Shown in pieces: positions 1,782-44,683 of a stretch of DNA of 44,683 nucleotides. The stretch is from Bacteroidota bacterium (GTDB lineage: Bacteria; Bacteroidota; Ignavibacteria; Kryptoniales; JAKASW01). Both the position numbers and the translations under genes were made by a program. Below the pieces are notes generated by a model. The model worked only from the letters and a program-made list of their open reading frames with translations. It made no database searches and was not told the origin of the DNA. The stretch is from NCBI GenBank assembly GCA_021818875.1, contig JAKASW010000002.1, positions 1 to 44,683 on the forward strand, written 5' to 3'. Position 1 is the stretch's first letter; every line of letters begins with the position of its first letter.

Positions 1782-2137
1782 TTAGGTAGAATCAGAATCT
1801 CTGCTCTAGTAACATATTTTCATAGGCCCCAGGCAGGCGGCAACTCGTTCAAGATAGCACACTTGCTTCTCGAAATCAAGAGGAAGGCATGTAGATGTTA
1901 ACTTGGTTTAAAAGATATTCCAGATAAAGAACGCAAAAAGATAGTGAAGGGTTCAACAAGATTGCGCTCGGAAGTTTATCGCGCCCTTTGACTTGGCGAG
2001 CTTTGTGTGCCACCACGCCGACGTTTCGGCATGCAGGTATAATACCGAACTACCCTATGGCCTGTACGCATGTAAAGGAAGCGCGAGATCGAAATTATTC
2101 GCACTCTCTCAGCAGTTCTTCCGGACTCTGAATCCGG

Positions 2138-2755
2138 CTAATCGAGTCTCTTGAAGATTGCGTAGTACGGACCCAAGGGAAGTATGCGGGAAACCTGCCC
2201 GGGCCTTAATCCCACGAGGTCTGACTGAATGTCCTGGGGAAAAGTATGTACGTCAATTTCTCCAAGGTCTCCTCCCCGCAACGTGGAGTTCGGCAGAGAA
2301 TTCATCTGGGCAAGCGAGTCGAAACTGGCGCCGGCTTTCAGAATGGCTTTGATGGAATCAGCCTGCGACTCGGTTAAAAAGACCATTTGTGCCAGGTGCA
2401 CCATGATAGGCGGATTAGCGATGACATGGGCTACCTGGATAATTCTCATCTGAACCGGTACATTGTTGTCCAACGGGGGGGAGTATTTCCATCGCTCGAT
2501 AATGCCTGCTGCAGCAGAATCCCACGCTGGATCTCCGCTCGAGTTGAGGAGGCACACTCGTTTTACCGAGCCATCCTTTGCAATGAGCAATTCAGTCTTC
2601 AGGAATAGATCTTTGCTTCCGTGGGGAGGAACCGGTAAAGCGGGCTTTTCTAGCAAGGTTGGTGGAGTTATTCTCCCTTCCATTGTCCCAAATATTGCAC
2701 ACCCGGAAAACGTCACCGCGAAAGCAACTGCGAACAACCCAATGAATTGTTTCAT
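2138..2755 (-). CDS. lipoprotein with TonB C-terminal-like domain fused to parvulin-type PPIase domain
   Basis: Signal plus lipobox MKQFIGLFAVAFAVTFSGC. The middle segment DGSVKRVCLLNSSGDPAWDSAAAGIIERWKYSPP resembles TonB_C. The C-terminus GGDLGEIDVHTFPQDIQSDLVGLRPGQVSRILPLGPYYAIFK resembles PpiC/parvulin rotamase. Confidence 0.6.
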   Translation of the reverse strand: MKQFIGLFAVAFAVTFSGCAIFGTMEGRITPPTLLEKPALPVPPHGSKDLFLKTELLIAKDGSVKRVCLLNSSGDPAWDSAAAGIIERWKYSPPLDNNVPVQMRIIQVAHVIANPPIMVHLAQMVFLTESQADSIKAILKAGASFDSLAQMNSLPNSTLRGGDLGEIDVHTFPQDIQSDLVGLRPGQVSRILPLGPYYAIFKRLD

Positions 2756-2999
2756 TCTTCCCCCTTTTTTCAGTTTGAATTCATCATAACTTTACGAAAA
2801 ATCGCCCGCAAAAGCAACTTCTATCCCGTGTTAGTAGTGGGCTACTTAGGGATGAGTCCGAGCACGAATTACACGAATTTTGACTTCGTGCAAACCGAAT
2901 AAAACGAGTCACGTCTGAGATTCGTGCCATCGGTCGGATTGAGTTCGTTCGTGATATTAGTGTTCAAAATAGCCCGCTGTCCCCGCGTTCTTCAGACTC

Positions 3000-3060
3000 C
3001 AGGCTGGAAAAAGCCTGCTTACAGGAAATAGTAATAACTTCAGGAGGGAAATGACTCCTG
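3000..3060 (-). terminator. two stem-loops downstream of GH18-1 (candidate terminators)
   Basis: CAGGCT-GGAAAA-AGCCTG at 3000-3017 and CAGGAG-GGAAATGA-CTCCTG at 3041-3060, about 60-120 nt past the stop of the minus-strand GH18 gene. No clean U-run. Confidence 0.35.
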
Positions 3061-3121
3061 CAAAGAATAACCTCCTGGCCCGATTCATAGACATCGCTAA
3101 ATGACCCAGGACCATTTGATA

Positions 3122-4531
3122 CTATTTTATTAGCATTAACTTCCTCGTCACAGCCGACGCCCCGACCTGGAGCCTATAAAAATACACGCCGCTGGGAAGA
3201 TCGCTTCCGTTGAAATCCACAGAGTAATCTCCCGAGTTCTCCGTCCCATCAACAAGTGTCGCTATAATTCTACCGAGAACATCATAGACCGCAAGTTTGA
3301 CGTTACCGGGCTCCAGTAAACGATAGCTGATAGTCGTGGTCGGGTTGAAGGGATTCGGAAAATTCTGAGACAGGAAAAAACTTTCAGGGGCTTGCGGTGG
3401 CACCGTGATGCTAAGAGTGCCGTGCAAGAACTCATTTGTAACGTCGAGGAAGGGATTAGTGCCGGTTTTCGGATCGTAACTCATACCGATTTCGTAGATC
3501 ATCAACCCGCCTAAACCTGTCGAGTCCACGTAGGCAAGCTTTGCCTTTAGTGCGTTGGTGTCGTCATACGATAAGAACCAATCGGCTGTAGCGACAGTTG
3601 TATCGAAACTCAGGTAACCTTCCTCGGCCGAGCTGTCCCAGTGATATAGACTTGGCTTGTAGTACTTTGACATTATGGTTGTGTACGGAATGTCTTGCCT
3701 GAAATTCGTTACGAGGCTTATCGACTGAAAAGGACCGGTGATGCCTTCCCAATATTCACCGCCAGGCTCACAGCCGATAGCTATCTTAGAAGCAGGGACA
3801 CCGACAGACTCGTACCTCTGTACCACGCTATTGATCGAATTCGTTGGGGTTTTATTGTCGAATGCTTCAACGTGGCCGCCAGAGTAAATCGGCGACGAAA
3901 AGTCGGAAAGCCAACCGGGGGAAGGATAACCCATTCCGTACGTCATAAGACCAACCTGGTCGAGGTAGCTCTGGACGGAACCGTAGACCTGGTACGAATT
4001 CCCGCTTGTAGCCGTGAGCAAATACTGAGGTCGTGGCAACCCCTTCCGCAGCGCGATTATCAGGTTTTTCCATTGGGTTGTGTCTTGCGGTTCAAGGAAT
4101 TCCCAATCCACATCGATTCCGTCGAATCCCTCAGTCTGTACGAAATTCTTCAGACTGTCTACAAACACCGGCAAATTTGCCGAATCTGATGCCACCTGGA
4201 AAAGAGACTCGGTATTGGCGGAGCCTACTGTGCAGATCACCTTTACGCCTGCAGCGTGAGCGGCGGAAATAATCTTACGAATGCTTCCGGTGTACTCCCA
4301 TCCCGTCACAAAAAAAGGTGAGGCAGTACTCGGATTTATTGCCATCCAGTCAAGGACCGTCATTCCACTGAAGTCTATTTTCGATATGGGATACGGCCCG
4401 TTGTCATCCTGATTTACTTCCCAGTTTCCAATATAACACCGTATCATGGGGCGCGTCGCTGCTGTAGCAAAGGATGCCATGAAGAACACGATGAAAGATA
4501 ATTCAAAAACCCGTTTCAAAGTGTTGATCAC
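3122..4531 (-). CDS. secreted GH18 glycoside hydrolase (chitinase-like) with T9SS (Por) C-terminal sorting domain
   Basis: GH18 DxxDxDxE motif DGIDVDWE. The C-terminal roughly 85 aa (FPNPFNPTTTISYRL...GVYFYRLQ...KLMLIK) is a classical Por_Secre_tail. I place the start at GTG 4531, with GGAGG 5 nt upstream, which gives signal peptide MINTLKRVFELSFIVFFMASFATAA. The track ORF extends to 4651. Confidence 0.85.
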   Translation of the reverse strand: MINTLKRVFELSFIVFFMASFATAATRPMIRCYIGNWEVNQDDNGPYPISKIDFSGMTVLDWMAINPSTASPFFVTGWEYTGSIRKIISAAHAAGVKVICTVGSANTESLFQVASDSANLPVFVDSLKNFVQTEGFDGIDVDWEFLEPQDTTQWKNLIIALRKGLPRPQYLLTATSGNSYQVYGSVQSYLDQVGLMTYGMGYPSPGWLSDFSSPIYSGGHVEAFDNKTPTNSINSVVQRYESVGVPASKIAIGCEPGGEYWEGITGPFQSISLVTNFRQDIPYTTIMSKYYKPSLYHWDSSAEEGYLSFDTTVATADWFLSYDDTNALKAKLAYVDSTGLGGLMIYEIGMSYDPKTGTNPFLDVTNEFLHGTLSITVPPQAPESFFLSQNFPNPFNPTTTISYRLLEPGNVKLAVYDVLGRIIATLVDGTENSGDYSVDFNGSDLPSGVYFYRLQVGASAVTRKLMLIK

Positions 4532-36758: not shown

Positions 36759-36998
36759 ATGGGTGAGCCAATACATATCGCCGGTGCAGGTCCTGCAGGC
36801 CTGGCTGCCGCTGTCAACCTTGCGAAGGCCGGATACGATACGATGGTACACAAACAGAACAGCGGCGTCGGTCTTAGGTTCGGCATCGCGGAACTCACCC
36901 TGAATCCCTCTCTTAGAAAGAGAGGGACTTTGTGTTCCCCTTCTCTTTCCAAGAGAAGGGGTCGGGGGTTGAGTTTGGAAATCGAGATTAAGAAGTGA
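36759..36998 (+). pseudogene. 5' remnant (about 40 codons) of the FAD-oxidoreductase gene, read through into the DUF559 cassette leader
   Basis: MGEPIHIAGAGPAGLAAAVNLAKAGYDTMVHKQNSGVGLRF parallels the start of 37378..38478. Nucleotides 36768-36811 are identical to 37387-37430. The ORF then diverges and stops at TGA 36996-36998. Confidence 0.7.
36906..36961 (+). repeat. two tandem perfect hairpins preceding the DUF559 ORF
   Basis: CCCTCTCTT-AGA-AAGAGAGGG (36906-36926) and CCCCTTCTCTT-TCC-AAGAGAAGGGG (36937-36961). Confidence 0.8.
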
Positions 36999-37378
36999 AC
37001 CCTGCGATTCCTGAAATTGCCAAACAACTAGCTCGCGATCTCCGACGGAGAGAGACGAGAGCGGAGAAGAAGTTATGGAACATCCTGTGCAATCGTCAAT
37101 TCCTTGGAAAGAAGTTTCTTCGTCAACATCCGATTATCTTCGACTATGAATCCCGCAAACGATTTTTCATCGCTGACTCTTGCTGTCACGAAAACAAATT
37201 AGTCATCGAGATCGACGGGAAAAGCCATGATTATCAGAAGGACTATGATGAGCTCAGAACTTACATAATCAATGGACTTGGATTTGGAATGGTCAGGTTC
37301 CGGAACGAAGAAATCGAGAATGACATTGGAAGGGCCTTGGATGAACTGAGGCGTTTATTGACGAAGGGAGTGATGTAA
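36995..37378 (+). CDS. DUF559 (Vsr-like endonuclease fold) protein
   Basis: LRRRETRAEKKLWNILCNRQFLGKKFLRQHPI...FIADSCCHENKLVIEIDGKSHDYQKDYDELRTYIINGLGFGMVRFRNEEI is the DUF559 pattern. The GTG start overlaps the remnant stop (GTGA) and the TAA stop overlaps the next ATG (TAATG). Confidence 0.8.
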   Translation: MNPAIPEIAKQLARDLRRRETRAEKKLWNILCNRQFLGKKFLRQHPIIFDYESRKRFFIADSCCHENKLVIEIDGKSHDYQKDYDELRTYIINGLGFGMVRFRNEEIENDIGRALDELRRLLTKGVM

Positions 37379-38478
37379 TGACCGACCCAATACATATCGC
37401 CGGTGCAGGTCCTGCAGGCCTGGCTGCCGCCGTCAACCTGGCGAAGGGCGGATACGATATGATGGTACATGAAAAGAATCCGGATGTCGGCATGAGGTTC
37501 AATGGTGATTTTCAGGGAATCGAAAACTGGTCTTCAGAGACAGATGCTCTGCCATTCCTCGAATCCGTCGGAGTTTCAGTGAACCTCAAGTACAATTCTT
37601 TCAACCGGCTTGTGACTTTTGATCCATCGGGAAGAAGGCACGTTGTGAAGTCGAGGAAGCCGCTCTTTTATCTTGTCGAGAGAGGAAATGGGTCCGACTC
37701 ACTCGACCAGAGTTTGAAAAGACAAGCTATCGGAGCCGGCGCGAAGTTCATCTTGAACAAGAGAGCGAAAGAAGCGAAACAGGGGAAGGTGATCGTTGCG
37801 ACCGGTCCGAAGGTGGCCGATGCAATTGCGAAAGGAATCCTGTTTGGGACTTCGTACCCCGACCCTGCGATAACCTTCGCCGACAACCGCATTGCTCCGA
37901 AGGCATACGCATGCCTGCTTGTGAGTGGCGGCAGAGCAACATTCGCAACCTGCCTTTTTGAGGATTTCAAGAACGCGAGAGATTATTTCGAAAGGGCACT
38001 GGAAAGAATGCAGAAGCTGGTCAAGATCGACATTCAATCACCTAAACAGTTCGGCGACTATGTGAATTTCTTTCTAAGACCACGCTTCAAAGGGACCAGG
38101 TTCTCGTGCATCGGGGAGTGCGCCGGCCTTCAGGATGGACCTTGGGGTTTCGGGATAAGATATGCTATAATGTCAGGTGCCCTGGCCGCGCGCAGTATCA
38201 TGAGAGGCCGGTCTTACGAGCGGCTTGCCCGAAAGAAAATGAGTAAGATATTCGAAGTCTCGATCACAGATCGATTTATTTTCTCGCATCTTGGAAACCG
38301 TCGCTACGAAACAGTTCTATCATATGGCGATACACTCGAAGATCTTGTTGAATGGTTGAAGAAGTGGTACAACCCATCGCCCTTTAAGACCGTAGCACCT
38401 CAGGTCACGAAACGCTGGTATCATTCGCGCATCAAACATAATGAGTGGATCTACGGGGACTCAGCTTCCATCCGGTAA
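37378..38478 (+). CDS. FAD-dependent oxidoreductase (geranylgeranyl-reductase-like family)
   Basis: N-terminal dinucleotide fold IHIAGAGPAGLAAAVNLAKGGYDMMVHEK. 366 aa, with C-terminal GECAGLQDGPWGFGIRYAIMSG. Confidence 0.7.
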   Translation: MTDPIHIAGAGPAGLAAAVNLAKGGYDMMVHEKNPDVGMRFNGDFQGIENWSSETDALPFLESVGVSVNLKYNSFNRLVTFDPSGRRHVVKSRKPLFYLVERGNGSDSLDQSLKRQAIGAGAKFILNKRAKEAKQGKVIVATGPKVADAIAKGILFGTSYPDPAITFADNRIAPKAYACLLVSGGRATFATCLFEDFKNARDYFERALERMQKLVKIDIQSPKQFGDYVNFFLRPRFKGTRFSCIGECAGLQDGPWGFGIRYAIMSGALAARSIMRGRSYERLARKKMSKIFEVSITDRFIFSHLGNRRYETVLSYGDTLEDLVEWLKKWYNPSPFKTVAPQVTKRWYHSRIKHNEWIYGDSASIR

Positions 38479-39661: not shown

Positions 39662-39776
39662 CTTCCGATGTCTTTTCAAGAATTTTCTGCAATCATGACT
39701 GTTATAAAAAACACCTCTTTGCGTCATTGAAGATGAAACTATGAATTTAAGGAATTTGAATAGGGAGAAATCGATT

Positions 39777-42452
39777 ATGACAAAAGACCCGGTATGCGGT
39801 ATGTCTGTCGATGAATCGACGGAATTTCAATCTGAGTTCGAAGGGAAGAAGTTCTTTTTCTGTTCTGCGGCCTGCAAATCGAAGTTCGACGCCGAGCCGG
39901 GAAAGTATGCTGAGGCACACAAAGAACAATTCCCGGCCGCTCAGCTCAAGAAGGCTACAGCAACCTCGCACGCAGACGGCACACAAAATCTGAAGCTTCC
40001 GATTATCGGAATGCACTGCTCGACATGCGCGGTGACGATTGAGAAGACTGTCGGAAAGTTGGCAGGCGTCGGCCAGGTACACGTGAACATCGCCACAAAT
40101 GATGCGTTCGTGGAGTATGATCCATCCAGGGTAAGTGCGAAAGAGATTTCCGAATCGATTGGTTCGGCAGGCTATCGTGTCGGCAGGGAAACACTTAAGT
40201 TAGGCATTGGTGGAATGTACTGCGCATCATGCGTGACAAAGATTGAAGACGGGCTGAAACGCATACCGGGGGTTCTCACTTCGAGTGTGGACCTTGCTTC
40301 GGAATCTGCAATTATAGAATACGTTCCGGCAGTCGTGCAGATCAAACCCATTAAGGATGTGGTGGAGAAGTTAGGCTATAAGACGTTTGACACTATCCCG
40401 CCGCGTGATGGGATCGAAGGCGAAGAAATGGATGAGACTCAGAAGGCCCATCAGCAGGAATACAAATCGTTGATGCGCAAATTTATCTTCGCAGCAGTAG
40501 TCTCCGTCCCGGTCGTATTCTTCAGCTATCCGACAATTTTCGGAATCATGTCTTTCATGAAAGTCGGGACCTCGTCATTTGAGATCGTATCCATTGCGAT
40601 GGCCGCCGCCACTCTCGCCGTCATGGCCTACTCAGGCGCCCAATTTTTTACAAGTGCCGTTGCAGCCTTCAGGAGCCGCTCTGCAAACATGAATACCCTG
40701 GTAGCAAGTGGCGTCTCCGCCGCATGGCTCTATTCCACGGTTGCCGTGCTTTTTCCTTCGGTCTTTCCATCAAAGACACTCGCGGGCGAGTTCTACGATG
40801 TCGTAGCCGTGGTCATCGCCCTGGTCATTTTAGGAATGGCACTCGAGGTTAGAGCTAAAGGAAAAAGTTCAGAAGCTATCAAGAAACTCATCGGGCTGCA
40901 GGCGAAAACTGCAAGGGTCGTCAGAGATGGAAAAGAGACGGATATTCCCATGGAAGAAGTTGTCCTCGATGATATCATAATCGTGCGGCCCGGTGAAAAG
41001 ATTCCCGTAGATGGAATTGTGACCGATGGAGCATCATCCGTCGATGAAGCCATGATTACCGGCGAGCCGCTGCCTGTCGAAAAAGGTGCAGGCGACGAAG
41101 TCATCGGTGGAACGATCAACAAGACAGGCTCATTCAGGTTCAAAGCGACTAAAGTCGGCAAAGACACCGCCCTGGCTCAGATAATCAACATGGTACAGCA
41201 GGCTCAAAGCTCCAAGGCTCCGATTGCGAGAACGGTTGATAAAGTTGCGAGCTACTTCGCACCTGCAGTGATAATTACCGGGATACTCGCGTTTATCGTG
41301 TGGTTCGATTTCGGTCCGCAGCCCGCACTTGTGTATGCGCTTATCGTTTTTGTGGCAACGCTCGTAATTGCCTGCCCGTGCGCTCTCGGAATTGCCACTC
41401 CTATTTCACTCATGGTTGGAGTCGGTAAAGGCGCCGAGAACGGAATACTCATTCGAAGCGGCTCAGCACTCGAGACAGCGCAGAAGCTCAACGCGATAGT
41501 GCTCGACAAAACCGGGACTATCACAAAAGGCAAACCGGCGCTGACCGACGTCGTTACCGTAAACGGTTTCAAAGAAGATGAGATCCTGAGTCTTGCGGCG
41601 TCGGTAGAGAAAGCTTCCGAGCACCCACTGGCGGAAGCCATCGTAAACGGAGCCCAGGACAGAAAAGTAAAGACAACTGACACCGAATCGTTTAACGCGA
41701 TTCCCGGGAAGGGCGTCGAGGCAAAGGTGACGGGCAAACATGTTCTCCTCGGCAACCTCAAGCTCATGAAGCAGTTCTCGATAGATTCGGCTGCACTCGA
41801 TCAAAAAGTCGGACAGCTTGCCGAGGATGGGAAGACGCCGATGTATGTTGCCGTTGACAAAAAGTTAGCCGGTCTGGTTGCGGTGGCCGATACGGTCAAG
41901 GAAGACTCGAAAGTTGCGGTTGCGCAGCTTCAGAAGATGGGTCTGGAAGTGGTCATGCTAACCGGCGACAACGAGCGCACAGCAAAAGCAGTGGCGCGGC
42001 AGGTCGGGATAACCAGAGTCTTTGCCGATGTTTTGCCGGAAGACAAAGCTCACAACGTCCAAAAAATCCAGATGGAGGGAAAGAAAGTGGCGATGGTCGG
42101 CGACGGAATAAATGATGCACCTGCGCTTGCCCAGGCAGATGTCGGACTTGCAATCGGTACCGGCACCGATGTTGCCATCGAAGCATCTGACATCACACTC
42201 ATAAAAGGAAACCTGAGTGGAGTAGTTGCGGCGATAGATGTATCGCGTGCCACGATGAAGAACATCCACCAGAATCTGTTCGGTGCGTTCTTTTACAACA
42301 TACTTGGGATCCCGATTGCGGCAGGACTGTTGTTCCCATTTTTCGGTATCCTTCTCTCGCCAATGATTGCAGGCGCCGCTATGGCCTTCAGCTCTGTTAC
42401 GGTAGTGACGAATGCGAACAGGCTGAGAGCATACAAATTAAAATTGCAGTGA
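39777..42452 (+). CDS. copA: copper-translocating P1B-type ATPase with N-terminal TRASH/YHS domain and two HMA domains
   Basis: DPVCGMSV...[12 protein letters not shown] (TRASH/YHS), GMHCSTCA and GMYCASCV (HMA), TGEPLP, CPC ([11 protein letters not shown]), [15 protein letters not shown]. Start chosen at ATG 39777 (GGGAG upstream). The track ORF starts at 39741. Confidence 0.95.
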
Positions 42453-42478
42453 TTGAAGCAAATGAGGAGAATAAAGAA

Positions 42479-42856
42479 ATGTCTATAGCACAAATTATCG
42501 TAACGCTTGCCGGTCTCGGATTGATAGGTTTGATTGCCTGGTACTTCTGGTTCTCGGAAAAGAAGGAAACTGTGATTGGAACAGCCGCTTCCGGAATCCA
42601 GGAAGCTTTCATAAAAGTAAAGGGTGGATACTCTCCGGATGTCATCGTTGTCGAAGCAGGCAAACCTGTTCGGCTGAACTTCAACCGCGAGGAGACTGCC
42701 GTTTGCTCGGAGCAGGTTCTCTTTCCGGATTTTGAAAAGCAGGCGACACTGACGCCATTCAAAACGGTGACACTCGAAATCACGCCTGAGAAACCTGGTG
42801 AGTACAACTTCCAGTGCGGCATGGGGATGCTGCACGGAAAGATAATCGCGCGATGA
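42479..42856 (+). CDS. membrane-anchored cupredoxin-like domain protein
   Basis: TM anchor (IVTLAGLGLIGLIAWYFWF), then KVKGGYSPDVIVVEAGKPVRLNF...LEITPEKPGEYNFQCGMGMLHGKI (Cupredoxin_1-type, Cys-Met-His ligands). GAGGAG lies upstream of ATG 42479. Confidence 0.75.
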   Translation: MSIAQIIVTLAGLGLIGLIAWYFWFSEKKETVIGTAASGIQEAFIKVKGGYSPDVIVVEAGKPVRLNFNREETAVCSEQVLFPDFEKQATLTPFKTVTLEITPEKPGEYNFQCGMGMLHGKIIAR

Positions 42857-43112
42857 CGCCGGTTACTTCTGCAAACCTGACGTGCCCGGTCTGTGGAGTA
42901 GTCCAGAAAGCAGAGATGCCGCTAAACGCATGTCAGCACTTCTACGTGTGCACAAGCTGCAAATCGGTTCTCAAGCCGAAGGAAGGCGACTGTCCCGCTC
43001 CGATATTATAGATTATCTAATGATGCGGGATGCCGTAAAGCGGCACTGCGTCTTCTGTTCGTATGCAGACGCGAAGTGTCCGCCGAAACAGATGGAGGCT
43101 CTTGAGGAATAG
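42853..43112 (+). pseudogene. GDCCVxC-family small Cys-rich protein gene interrupted by a 53-nt insert (42994-43046)
   Basis: The upstream half is MTPVTSANLTCPVCGVVQKAEMPLNACQHFYVCTSCKSVLKPKEGDC. The downstream half, in a shifted frame, is CVFCSYADAKCPPKQMEALEE*. Removing 53 nt restores GDCCVFCSY in frame. Confidence 0.7.
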
Positions 43113-43202
43113 TGCGGCGAGGCTGCGACTCAGACTGTCCGGGAATCCTAATGCGCAATTCGATGGGTCCCGGGACCCTTACCGTTAAAGCAAGAATAAT
43201 TT

Positions 43203-43321
43203 TGAAACACATAGACACATAGGGCACATAGTCAATTAATCTCTCTATGTTTTCTATGTTCCTATGTGGTTCAATCTTTTGGGGTCCGTCTTTGCGGTAA
43301 AATCACCGGGGAAGCTTGCTT
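43203..43321. repeat. palindromic CACATAG-array repeat, copy 1
   Basis: CACATAG at 43208, 43216 and 43225. Centre TCAATTAATCT. CTATGT(G/T) at 43245, 43254 and 43262 (a mirror arrangement with 8/9-nt spacing). The conserved tail is GGTTCAATCTTTTGGGG...GCTTGCTTG. Confidence 0.85.
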
Positions 43322-43461
43322 GTCCTGCATCCATGGCCTAAATTCCTGAACGTCATGTCAGATGATGTCCAGGAATGTACAGGTATCATGGCTAGCCAGG
43401 ATTCATGGCGAAGCGATACGCGGGCCGCTTGCACATATTTAACTTATAGGTTAACTTCAAT

Positions 43462-43833
43462 TTGCAGATCAAAGAGTTCGTAACCGGGGAAAAGGCAGAT
43501 ATAGCTGTTCTGGTTGATGAGTATGGTGGATGCGATGTCGTCGATTTCATTGAAAAACTTGGCGAACCTGATCAGAGGAAAGTCATACACCTTTTTAACA
43601 TGTTCTGTGCAAAAGGCGAGATAAGAAACGAAGAGAAATTCATGCATGAGGCCGGAAAAATATTTGCCTTCAAATCCTATTAGGTCAGGATATTGTGCGC
43701 GTTCCTTCCGATTCCGCAGAAGCGCACTGTCGTTCTGTTACACGCCTTCAGGAAGAAGTCTGATAGATTGAAGGAGTCGGACCTGGAGAAAGCGTTGGCG
43801 TTGTATCGGAAAATTATCAGCATGTCAATGTGA
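43462..43833 (+). pseudogene. Gp49/HigB-like (RelE/ParE superfamily) toxin with in-frame TAG
   Basis: Reading through TAG 43681-43683 gives ...GKIFAFKSY*VRILCAFLPIPQKRTVVLLHAFRKKSDRLKESDLEKALALYRKI. The second half is the conserved yRilY.f......vvLLhaF.KKs.k.p..e...A motif. It ends 7 nt before the XRE gene. Confidence 0.65.
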
Positions 43834-43840
43834 GCGTGCC

Positions 43841-44338
43841 ATGGAGCCAAAAGAGAGATTCCGAAAACTCGCAGAAAAATACGATGACGATCCCGAATTC
43901 ATTTACGAGGGATTGGTTCTCCGTATTTCCGAAAGAATAGCAGAGATAATGAAAGACAGCAACCTGACACGGAGCGGTCTTGCTGAGGCTCTCTCATGTT
44001 CGCCTGCTTATGTCACGAAGCTCCTCCGCGGCTCTGAAAATTTGACTCTGAAGAAACTGGCAGAGTTGAGCCACGCCCTGGGGGCGGAACTGTCTGTGGA
44101 CCTGGTCCCGAGAACAAGAGGCCGGCGCCAGAATAAGCTGCACCATGGAGAGTATAACCATGGAGCACGGGTGAGGGGAGTCGTTGCTGAAAAGAGGAAC
44201 AAGCGATGCATAGTTCCTGGTGGCCCCTTCGCCGACGGAAACAATATTGTTCGTGTTGCCCCGCTCTTTTGTATTCCTCAAACAGAAAGAAGAGGCGAAG
44301 CTTGGCATGTGTGCTATTCGATAGCTCCGCAGCTATAG
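43841..44338 (+). CDS. XRE-family HTH protein (HigA-like antitoxin) with a long C-terminal extension
   Basis: LTRSGLAEALSCSPAYVTKLLRGSENLTLKKLAELSHALGAEL is a Cro/C1-type HTH. It sits immediately downstream of the toxin-like gene. Confidence 0.7.
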   Translation: MEPKERFRKLAEKYDDDPEFIYEGLVLRISERIAEIMKDSNLTRSGLAEALSCSPAYVTKLLRGSENLTLKKLAELSHALGAELSVDLVPRTRGRRQNKLHHGEYNHGARVRGVVAEKRNKRCIVPGGPFADGNNIVRVAPLFCIPQTERRGEAWHVCYSIAPQL

Positions 44339-44349
44339 GAAAGAAATAC

Positions 44350-44460
44350 TGAAACACATAGGCACAAAGAGCACATAGTCAATTAATCTTTCTATGTTCC
44401 TATGTGGTTCAATCTTTTGGGTCGCGTCTTAGCGTTGAACAGAGGAGGCGCGCTTGCTTG
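44350..44460. repeat. palindromic CACATAG-array repeat, copy 2
   Basis: Colinear with 43203-43321 (TGAAACACATAG...GCACATAGTCAATTAATCT...CTATGTTCCTATGTGGTTCAATCTTTTGGG...GCTTGCTTG). One right-arm unit (9 bp) is missing and the middle left unit is degenerate (CACAAAG). Confidence 0.85.
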
Positions 44461-44499
44461 CTCAGCCTTCACGACCTATATTTTTGAAAATCACGGCAT

Positions 44500-44683
44500 G
44501 TGAAGTTGATTGATGAATCACAAGTCCGGGGGGCCTTGTTCGTCTGGCTCGAAAAACAGAGCGGGCGGAACGGCGGGATATTCACACGACAGCAGTTGGA
44601 AAACGATTTCACTTTCCGCGGCGAAAGGATAGCTCTTGTCGGACCGACCGGGATTTGGAAACCGAGGCAGTTCGAAGTAATTC
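44500..44683 (+). CDS. partial ORF (runs off window), possibly the N-terminus of an HNH_2-type restriction endonuclease
   Basis: From GTG 44500 the frame reads VKLIDESQVRGALFVWLEKQSGRNGGIFTRQQLENDFTFRGERIALVGPTGIWKPRQFEVI. The pattern F.F.G.R..L.GP.GI.KP recalls HNH-family proteins. This is from memory only, and the ORF is open to the window edge. Confidence 0.3.
   Translation, partial: MKLIDESQVRGALFVWLEKQSGRNGGIFTRQQLENDFTFRGERIALVGPTGIWKPRQFEVI

Follow-up and report, generated by a model that had tools for sequence, protein, structure and literature searches.

A two-hairpin module from an abundant repeat family interrupts a GDCCVxC gene and most likely inactivates it

Introduction

Bacterial MITEs (miniature inverted-repeat transposable elements), including Correia, ERIC, RUP and BOX, are abundant non-autonomous elements, small and structured, by which genes can be disrupted or decorated. 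Rickettsia palindromic elements (RPEs), about 100–150 bp long and restricted to Rickettsia, were reportedly described by Ogata et al. in 2000 as selfish repeats found inserted in protein-coding genes, where in-frame translation is possible. Here we analyse a 53-nt insert that splits a GDCCVxC gene inside its signature motif, in a 44,683-nt stretch of contig JAKASW010000002.1 (assembly GCA_021818875.1) that we call the window throughout, and compare this two-hairpin module with the closest described systems. Palindrome-associated transposable elements (PATEs) derived from IS200/IS605 and moved by Y1 HUH enzymes have been described at 3–6 times the size of the module. Repetitive extragenic palindromes (REPs) of the CGTC type are reported from Bacteroidetes and Chlorobi without a known transposase, in a study that also cites RPEs (PMC3733652). 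Mobile hairpin inserts of about 50 nt with synonymous edge codons likewise occur in coding sequence as the phage T4 gene 60 cassette and the byps/GC clusters of yeast mitochondria, and the features conserved among gene-60-type bypass cassettes (bioRxiv 10.1101/2022.08.31.505936) served as our comparison criteria for that class. The module works like REPs, RPEs and hairpin-dependent IS200/IS605-type miniatures, yet departs from each in one or more of the defining features compared.

Positions 42993–43045 of the window are very probably a copy of a gene-less, non-autonomous mobile element composed of two hairpins, which inserted seamlessly and in doing so most likely inactivated the GDCCVxC gene. 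The membership of the insert in a structured repeat family, its exact boundaries, its presence/absence polymorphism and the disruption of the reading frame are established.

An insert splits the GDCCVxC gene inside its signature motif

The interrupted gene and the insert comprise the following features:

42853–42992, + strand: 5′ part of the GDCCVxC gene, encoding MTPV...KEGD plus the leading two bases (TG) of the codon for the first Cys in the CC pair
42993–43045, + strand: two-hairpin module (the insert), 53 nt, ends T...A, delimited by family alignment, covariance models and restoration of the frame on removal
42993–43030, + strand: hairpin 1, a UCCCGC/GCGGGA clamp around an AT-rich imperfect hairpin with a TAGAT-T-ATCTA core, seen in RNA and DNA folds
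43009–43023, + strand: stop codons that the module places in the upstream frame (TAG 43009, TAA 43018 and TGA 43021), by direct reading
43031–43045, + strand: hairpin 2, UGCCG-UAAAG-CGGCA, stacked directly on hairpin 1 in RNA and DNA folds
43046–43112, + strand: 3′ part of the GDCCVxC gene, the C of the split Cys codon followed by CVFCSYADAKCPPKQMEALEE and a stop

The open reading frame (ORF) that starts at ATG 42853 reads MTPV...KPKEGDC, with TGT at 42991–42993, and continues through PAPIL to TAG 43009–43011. The remainder of the gene begins at TGC 43047, runs to a stop at 43112 and now lies in the −1 frame relative to the 5′ part. Because the 53-nt length is not a multiple of three and the module brings TAG, TAA and TGA into frame, GDCCVxC is truncated after GDC to a 52-aa product that lacks the CVxC...C half of the signature. 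Judged from the sequence, the gene is most likely inactivated in this strain.

Deletion of 42994–43046 or, equally, of 42993–43045 yields a 68-aa protein containing GDCCVFCSY. This fused protein matches the NCBIfam profile NF041374 (GDCCVxC domain-containing (seleno)protein; curated cut-off 40 bits) at 92.1 bits over positions 2–57 of 58, and the N-terminal fragment alone scores 59 bits over positions 2–41. The full-length match is reached only after removal of the 53 nt, and the genomic gene is an interrupted member of the family. In the best 120 of 350 homologues of the fused protein the motif is uninterrupted, and 119 of these 120 retain both of its Cys positions. The window contains no second GDCCVxC gene, a degenerate split-gene pattern returned 0 matches to other GDCCVxC genes with a 27–57-nt gap in metagenome contigs, and we found no paper on GDCCVxC in the literature searched.

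The insert is bracketed by an ACTG direct repeat and by synonymous Cys codons. These features, together with the coordinates, hairpins and in-frame stops, had been described in an earlier note on this DNA, and direct reading confirmed all of them; the same note read the locus as a single split gene, which the profile score of the fused protein and the contiguous motif of the best 120 of 350 homologues bear out. It had set the gap at 42994–43046. Deletion of that interval does restore the same protein; however, the family-wide ends T...A place the element one base to the left, so that the window element is 42993–43045 and the ancestral sequence GAC-TG^C-TGC-GTC, where the caret marks the insertion point.

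Folded as RNA together with its flanks, the insert forms a three-way junction in which the exon ends are adjacent and GAAGGCG pairs with CGUCUUC (z −2.2). We detected no promoter or terminator signal above chance in the insert.

The insert belongs to a family of two-hairpin modules

A pattern drawn from the two stems (CCCGC, a gap, then GCGGGATGCCG-N5-CGGCA) gave at least 120 matches in a collection of species-representative genomes, mostly chance or coding matches in high-GC actinobacteria. About 20 genome loci stand apart, in metagenome-assembled genomes (MAGs) of Bacteroidota, Ignavibacteriota and Kryptoniota and in one MAG of Thermodesulfobacteriota. Beyond what the pattern demanded, these loci have in common an invariant T ahead of CCCGC, an interior that is AT-rich and similar in length, and A as the second loop base. 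In JGI metagenomes, a stricter pattern gave at least 120 matches, with 98 unique copies among the loci listed and with sediment and groundwater metagenomes among the sources; this pattern required the T, which is therefore an independent feature in the genome-scan copies only. Genome and metagenome copies alike have an AT-rich loop of 16–30 nt and a second hairpin that abuts the first. Running a covariance model with cmsearch over 637 kb of retrieved loci gave 131 copies, which often lie in clusters, in tandem or in inverted arrangement. The insert was recognised at 53.7 bits (E about 1e-16) by a model made only from copies outside the window, and this model had no other match in the 44.7 kb.

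The module unit is 43–54 nt long and has the form U-CCCGC-[AT-rich imperfect hairpin]-GCGGG-A followed by U-GCCG-[YAMRG]-CGGC-A, with the consensus TCCCGC...GCGGGAUGCCGYAARGCGGCA. Across the stems 99.8% of cells are paired and double changes occur at 5 of 11 pairs, which 0 of 500 shuffles equalled; most copies were fetched with a pattern that fixes the stems, and this variation comes from neighbouring copies found by the model. All six base pairs of the hairpin 1 clamp are paired in 100% of 100 distinct copies, three of them with changes on both sides. At the second pair of hairpin 2, 15 copies have C-G and 2 have U-A in place of G-C. Compensatory changes include UGCCG/CGGCA to UCCCG/CGGGA and UCCCGC/GCGGGA to UGCCGC/GCGGCA, and also UCCCGU/ACGGGA.

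The two-hairpin module family is very abundant and apparently undescribed to date. Against Rfam the window insert has no match, even at E values up to 10, the related copies in 18 loci match no family at gathering score, and we found no description of a matching repeat family in the literature searched. A search for further copies of the insert had been proposed in the earlier note as a check, and it yields more than 100 homologous modules in unrelated genomes; these many related copies support that note's conservative option, a miniature palindromic insertion that inactivated the gene.

Filled and empty sites define a seamless insertion

Comparison of occupied and unoccupied sites defines the ends of the module. 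Two filled/empty pairs lie inside a repeated intergenic element of about 550 nt common to two genomes (alignment A4), and in the third an interrupted IS110-family element is set against an intact copy. These three pairs differ by exactly one module, from first T to last A, in an unambiguous register. In the pair formed by the window and a close relative (L002), the boundary is ambiguous by one base and fits T...A. There is no target-site duplication in any of the four comparisons. Read in module orientation, the sequence immediately 3′ of the insertion site is usually a CTTTG-like word, most often CTTT or TTTG; at the window site it is CTGCG.

At the window locus the module would have inserted between the G and C of the ancestral GAC-TG^C-TGC-GTC without duplicating the target, leaving the CVFC...C half of the gene stranded in another frame. 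We infer that it moves as DNA, probably as a folded single strand recognised through its hairpins, because insertion leaves no duplication, the stems are conserved while the loops are free and the sites lie 5′ of CTTTG-like words. The mobilising enzyme would act in trans. The only recurrent family among 150 neighbouring ORFs is IS110, with 7 ORFs, 6 of which are the interrupted targets themselves, and no Y1/HUH protein (Y1_Tnp) occurs among the 150 ORFs, which lie within 1.2 kb of modules.

Two further ideas about the target were set aside. Outer stems of at least 6 bp formed by the flanks occur in 5.7% of copies and 1.2% of controls; we do not claim a flank outer stem or hairpin-loop target from this modest enrichment, and the window copy needs a G-U pair to reach 7 bp. 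A hairpin 2 loop complementary to the target word was rejected because there is no clear covariation.

The repeat of about 550 nt is itself conserved and recurs, in several copies, in chromosome OY970334.1 and another Bacteroidetes MAG (L017 1420–2120, L024 5560–6320, L075 2760–3480 and L020 6000–6720). It is bounded by long hairpins of the CTTCTTTCTCTG/CAGAGAAAGAAG type and serves as a landing pad for two-hairpin modules; Rfam has no family at gathering score at these loci.

Modules interrupt or extend other genes

The module family behaves like other selfish palindromic repeats: its copies are mostly intergenic, sometimes destructive and sometimes tolerated in frame. Destructive insertions recur in an IS110-family transposase gene, where a module lies at ...ARTxVAK|ELAKIVYY (the bar marks the insertion point), in the orientation opposite to the gene, at six loci that stand for three diverged variants. 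Exact removal of the module restores the frame and a conserved C-terminal helix in all six. The restored protein has more than 3,000 homologues, of which the best 120 are all intact, 333 aa long and 78–95% identical, and intact copies of the element are 92% (L245) to 95% identical to the interrupted copy. Across the three variants the module loops are about 80% alike, and the synonymous sites of the gene have pS 0.65–0.8. The simplest reading is that this site is a hot spot struck repeatedly while intact master copies carry the selection signal, since one variant has its insertion point shifted by 1 nt, the best homologues are intact and the intact copy has an empty site. The 26 codons downstream of the module have dN/dS 0.03–0.13 at pS 0.4–0.6; we considered this purifying selection as evidence of bypass or tolerance and dropped it, because intact masters and a hot spot explain the signal.

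IS110 elements and modules seem to share neighbourhoods. In L055 (3100–3330) the interrupted IS110 copy contains further small hairpin inserts downstream of the module. Near the intact copies (L245 1290–1340 and 2520–2650), module-like hairpins such as TCCCGTGGCG...GGATCCCGTACAGCGGGA lie just beyond the conserved ends of the insertion sequence, and for that reason we rejected them as part of the intact element.

A second IS110 gene (L240) is disrupted by a module at a different position, and another module disrupts a gene for an integron-integrase-like tyrosine recombinase (L183). Tolerated insertion is seen in an amidase gene of L148 (gene orientation 1964–3832), whose 623-codon ORF stays open across two in-frame modules of 48 nt. 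The two are translated in one and the same module frame as inserts of 16 residues apiece (AALRHPAY...), and without them the protein matches Pfam Amidase over 2–444/445. An in-frame insertion that leaves the ORF open also occurs in the L128 copy. In the IS110, amidase and integrase genes the module is antisense to the gene and lacks matched codons.

The interrupted allele lies in a conserved operon

The GDCCVxC gene is the third gene of an operon, after these two:

39741–42452, + strand: copA-type heavy-metal P-type ATPase with a YHS and two HMA domains, operon gene 1 (NCBIfam TIGR01525, 649 bits; TIGR01511, 615 bits)
42449–42856, + strand: cupredoxin-like gene (Pfam PF13473 Cupredoxin_1, E 6.6e-23), whose stop overlaps the ATG of the GDCCVxC gene

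The nearest named homologues of CopA come from Bacteroidota, Melioribacter, Ignavibacteriales and Calditrichota, and the window encodes a protein with a type IX secretion system (T9SS) sorting domain; by this gene content the host is a bacterium of the Fibrobacteres–Chlorobi–Bacteroidetes (FCB) group.

Three further deposited assemblies (L001, GCA_027321765.1; L003, ERZ27233565; L004, GCA_027400895.1) carry exactly this insert. The relative L002 has the same copA–cupredoxin–GDCCVxC operon with an intact GDCCVxC gene (...KPGDCCVFCSY) and is 99.5% identical to the window over 3,533 nt upstream, up to a point 12 nt short of the site. In L252, a relative at greater distance, the order regulator–copA–cupredoxin–GDCCVxC is kept, with an intact gene of 70 aa. 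The earlier note held that the family usually sits beside P-type ATPases. This is true here and in one relative, but in three other homologue contexts sampled (L248, L249 and L250/L251) there is no P-type ATPase within 4 kb; one intact homologue follows a 58-aa YHS-domain gene and the others lie amid unrelated genes. The link of the GDCCVxC family to metal-efflux operons is thus not universal.

Several observations weigh against the mobile-element explanation. The empty allele of L002 is not isogenic, as identity falls from 99.5% to about 88% from about 30 nt upstream of the site. The comparison of window 42963–43112 with L002 thereby places a recombination breakpoint inside the GDCCVxC gene, near the module, and given this drop the 3′ end of the gene lies at a recombination border, at the edge of a variable region. 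The module may have come with imported DNA instead of transposing in this lineage. Moreover, the 44.7-kb window holds no second copy of the insert, and no mobilising enzyme could be tied to the module among the 150 neighbouring ORFs. We nevertheless regard insertion of a mobile two-hairpin element as the very probable origin of the 53 nt.

Downstream of the GDCCVxC gene, the window strain and L002 carry different cassettes. A repeat of about 170 nt (window 43198–43368 and 44345–44506; also L002 3720–3869) flanks a small cassette with a 73-aa ORF (43462–43683) and a helix-turn-helix protein (43841–44338). The left half of this repeat is a long hairpin in which three CACATAG units face three CTATGTG units (−18 kcal/mol when folded as DNA, z −6); in L002 the right half is present, with other cassettes (MazE/PIN and PLD). 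These repeats look like the edges of a variable cassette array that starts at the 3′ end of the GDCCVxC gene.

Alternative explanations for the split gene

There is a small chance that the interrupted gene still yields a GDC(C)VFC protein, either because the module is precisely excised from DNA, as a reversible switch, or because the ribosome skips it. In the first case, seamless excision at a useful frequency would restore GAC-TGC-TGC-GTC and turn the gene off and on within a population. The insertion is itself seamless and without duplication, so that exact loss would indeed restore the gene. Intact IS110 copies 92–95% identical to the interrupted one could be products of such loss, and the greater likeness of IS110 modules than of synonymous sites is compatible with modules that inserted repeatedly as well as with an ancestral module that was precisely lost. 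However, a hot spot is the simpler account of the IS110 pattern, given the 1-nt shift and the intact state of the best 120 of more than 3,000 homologues, and the empty allele of L002 is not isogenic. We consider a switch improbable.

Translational bypass of the T4 gene 60 or byps type, which the earlier note had raised as a coding gap bypassed or excised, would take off at UGU 42991–42993 and land at UGC 43047–43049. Synonymous Cys codons do flank the gap, known gaps span lengths that include its 53–56 nt, the final two bases of UGU at take-off can pair into the 5′ stem in the minimum-free-energy fold in competition with hairpin 2, and the element is mobile, as gene 60 cassettes and byps are. 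The N-terminus ahead of take-off has 47 aa and is zinc-ribbon-like, and the nascent-peptide signals that prime take-off offer no sequence rule that carries over to it. Against this, decoding would resume at GUC and give GDC-VFC, one Cys short of the family motif. The codon after take-off is CCC, neither a stop nor rare (9.0 per 1,000 in 26 window ORFs), and the first stop comes five codons after it. The Shine–Dalgarno-like words GAG, GGA, GGG and AGG are absent 5–7 nt before the landing codon, where 43038–43044 reads AAGCGGC, and UGC, a potential premature landing triplet, lies inside the gap at 43024 and 43031. The gap is also missing from the best 120 of 350 homologues, with 0 split genes in metagenome contigs, and the modules in IS110, amidase and integrase genes are antisense with unmatched codons. 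With the GDC-VFC product, the CCC codon, UGC in the gap and no mini-Shine–Dalgarno, the option of a gene-60-like gap is unsupported, and we hold bypass to be very unlikely.

Removal at the RNA level, intron-like, or a −1 frameshift by which the module would be translated into 18 additional residues, is barely conceivable. The predicted fold does join the exon ends in a three-way junction (z −2.2), but the host is bacterial, so archaeal bulge-helix-bulge splicing is inapplicable. Rfam has no match even at E of 10 or less, complementary flanks are not general in the family (5.7% versus 1.2% of controls for stems of at least 6 bp), no slippery heptamer precedes TAG 43009 and modules insert in both orientations relative to genes. 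We accordingly rejected an archaeal bulge-helix-bulge intron, in view of the T9SS sorting-domain protein and of a CopA nearest to Bacteroidota/Ignavibacteriota, and also −1 frameshifting, which lacks a slippery heptamer and would put 18 extra residues inside a metal-binding motif. Selenocysteine recoding through a selenocysteine insertion sequence (SECIS) was rejected because in-frame TAG and TAA precede TGA 43021 and because Rfam gave no match. An assembly or sequencing artefact, in which the 53 nt are chimeric or mis-joined, was likewise among the options of the earlier note. Every carrier of this exact allele is a metagenome assembly, as an artefact might lead one to expect; yet four records that come from different assemblies (the window, L001, L003 and L004) share the sequence exactly, and the family shows conserved architecture and compensatory changes in many unrelated genomes. 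With three further assemblies and more than 100 homologous modules in hand, we regard an artefact as effectively excluded.

Comparison with described elements

Like REPs and their paired form, REPINs, modules are short, GC-clamped, high-copy hairpin repeats that are mostly intergenic, often form clusters or inverted pairs and are occasionally intragenic. REPs are defined by one short stem-loop with an unpaired GTAG or CGTC tag on one side (definition in PMC3733652), whereas neither end of the module has such a tag; it consists of two different hairpins head to tail, one with an AT-rich interior, and ends exactly in T...A. REPs and REPINs are associated with REP-associated tyrosine transposases (RAYTs), and no RAYT was found near modules among the 150 sampled neighbour ORFs. 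The L148 amidase, with its two in-frame 48-nt copies and open ORF, resembles RPE behaviour; the window copy differs in being 53 nt long, out of frame and stop-bearing, and the module is much smaller than RPEs.

PATEs share with the module the absence of target duplication, the use of hairpins instead of long terminal inverted repeats and insertion next to a short preferred word, which for the module is a CAAAG-like word to its 5′ side on the complementary strand; seamless loss is possible in principle for both. In IS608-type ends, by contrast, the layout of guide and cleavage sites needs room that the module lacks, as its hairpins are terminal from first to last base. Its target word is also loose compared with IS200/IS605, with GCAG in the window and CAAA or AAAG in IS110, and a right flank of CTTT, TTTG or CTG, and no TnpA occurs among the 150 ORFs that lie up to 1.2 kb from modules. 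Terminal inverted repeats and target duplication characterise MITEs; for the module, duplication is absent from all four comparisons, the two ends share just the 5–6-nt stem word TCCCGC/GCGGSA, and the length is no more than 43–54 nt. Set against T4 gene 60-type cassettes, the window insert fails most of the defining bypass features, and its gap is not conserved among homologues.

Consequences for gene annotation and strain typing

The locus itself is an ordinary insertion-disrupted gene, and the module family is a moderately interesting by-product of its analysis. The split GDCCVxC gene is best annotated as an insertion-disrupted allele of an otherwise conserved operon, not as a recoding or selenoprotein signal. 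Modules of this family will lead to truncated or missed gene calls in MAGs and make good strain-level markers, and identifying the mobilising enzyme could uncover a system of single-strand DNA transposition that is new or very reduced. Were the gene not dead after all, the module family would be the smallest known bacterial transposable unit harmless inside genes, and either excision by a novel hairpin-specific single-strand transposition system or ribosome skipping would be at work. The junction peptides EGDCVFCSYADAK or EGDCCVFCSYADAK would be diagnostic of a product of the downstream frame.

A further repeat in the window

Elsewhere in the window, a 117-nt direct repeat (36765–36881 and 37384–37500, 85% identical) duplicates the 5′ end of an FAD-oxidoreductase gene (37378–38478) and flanks a gene for a DUF559 (Vsr-like endonuclease) protein at 36995–37378, which suggests that the DUF559 gene was inserted between the two repeat copies.

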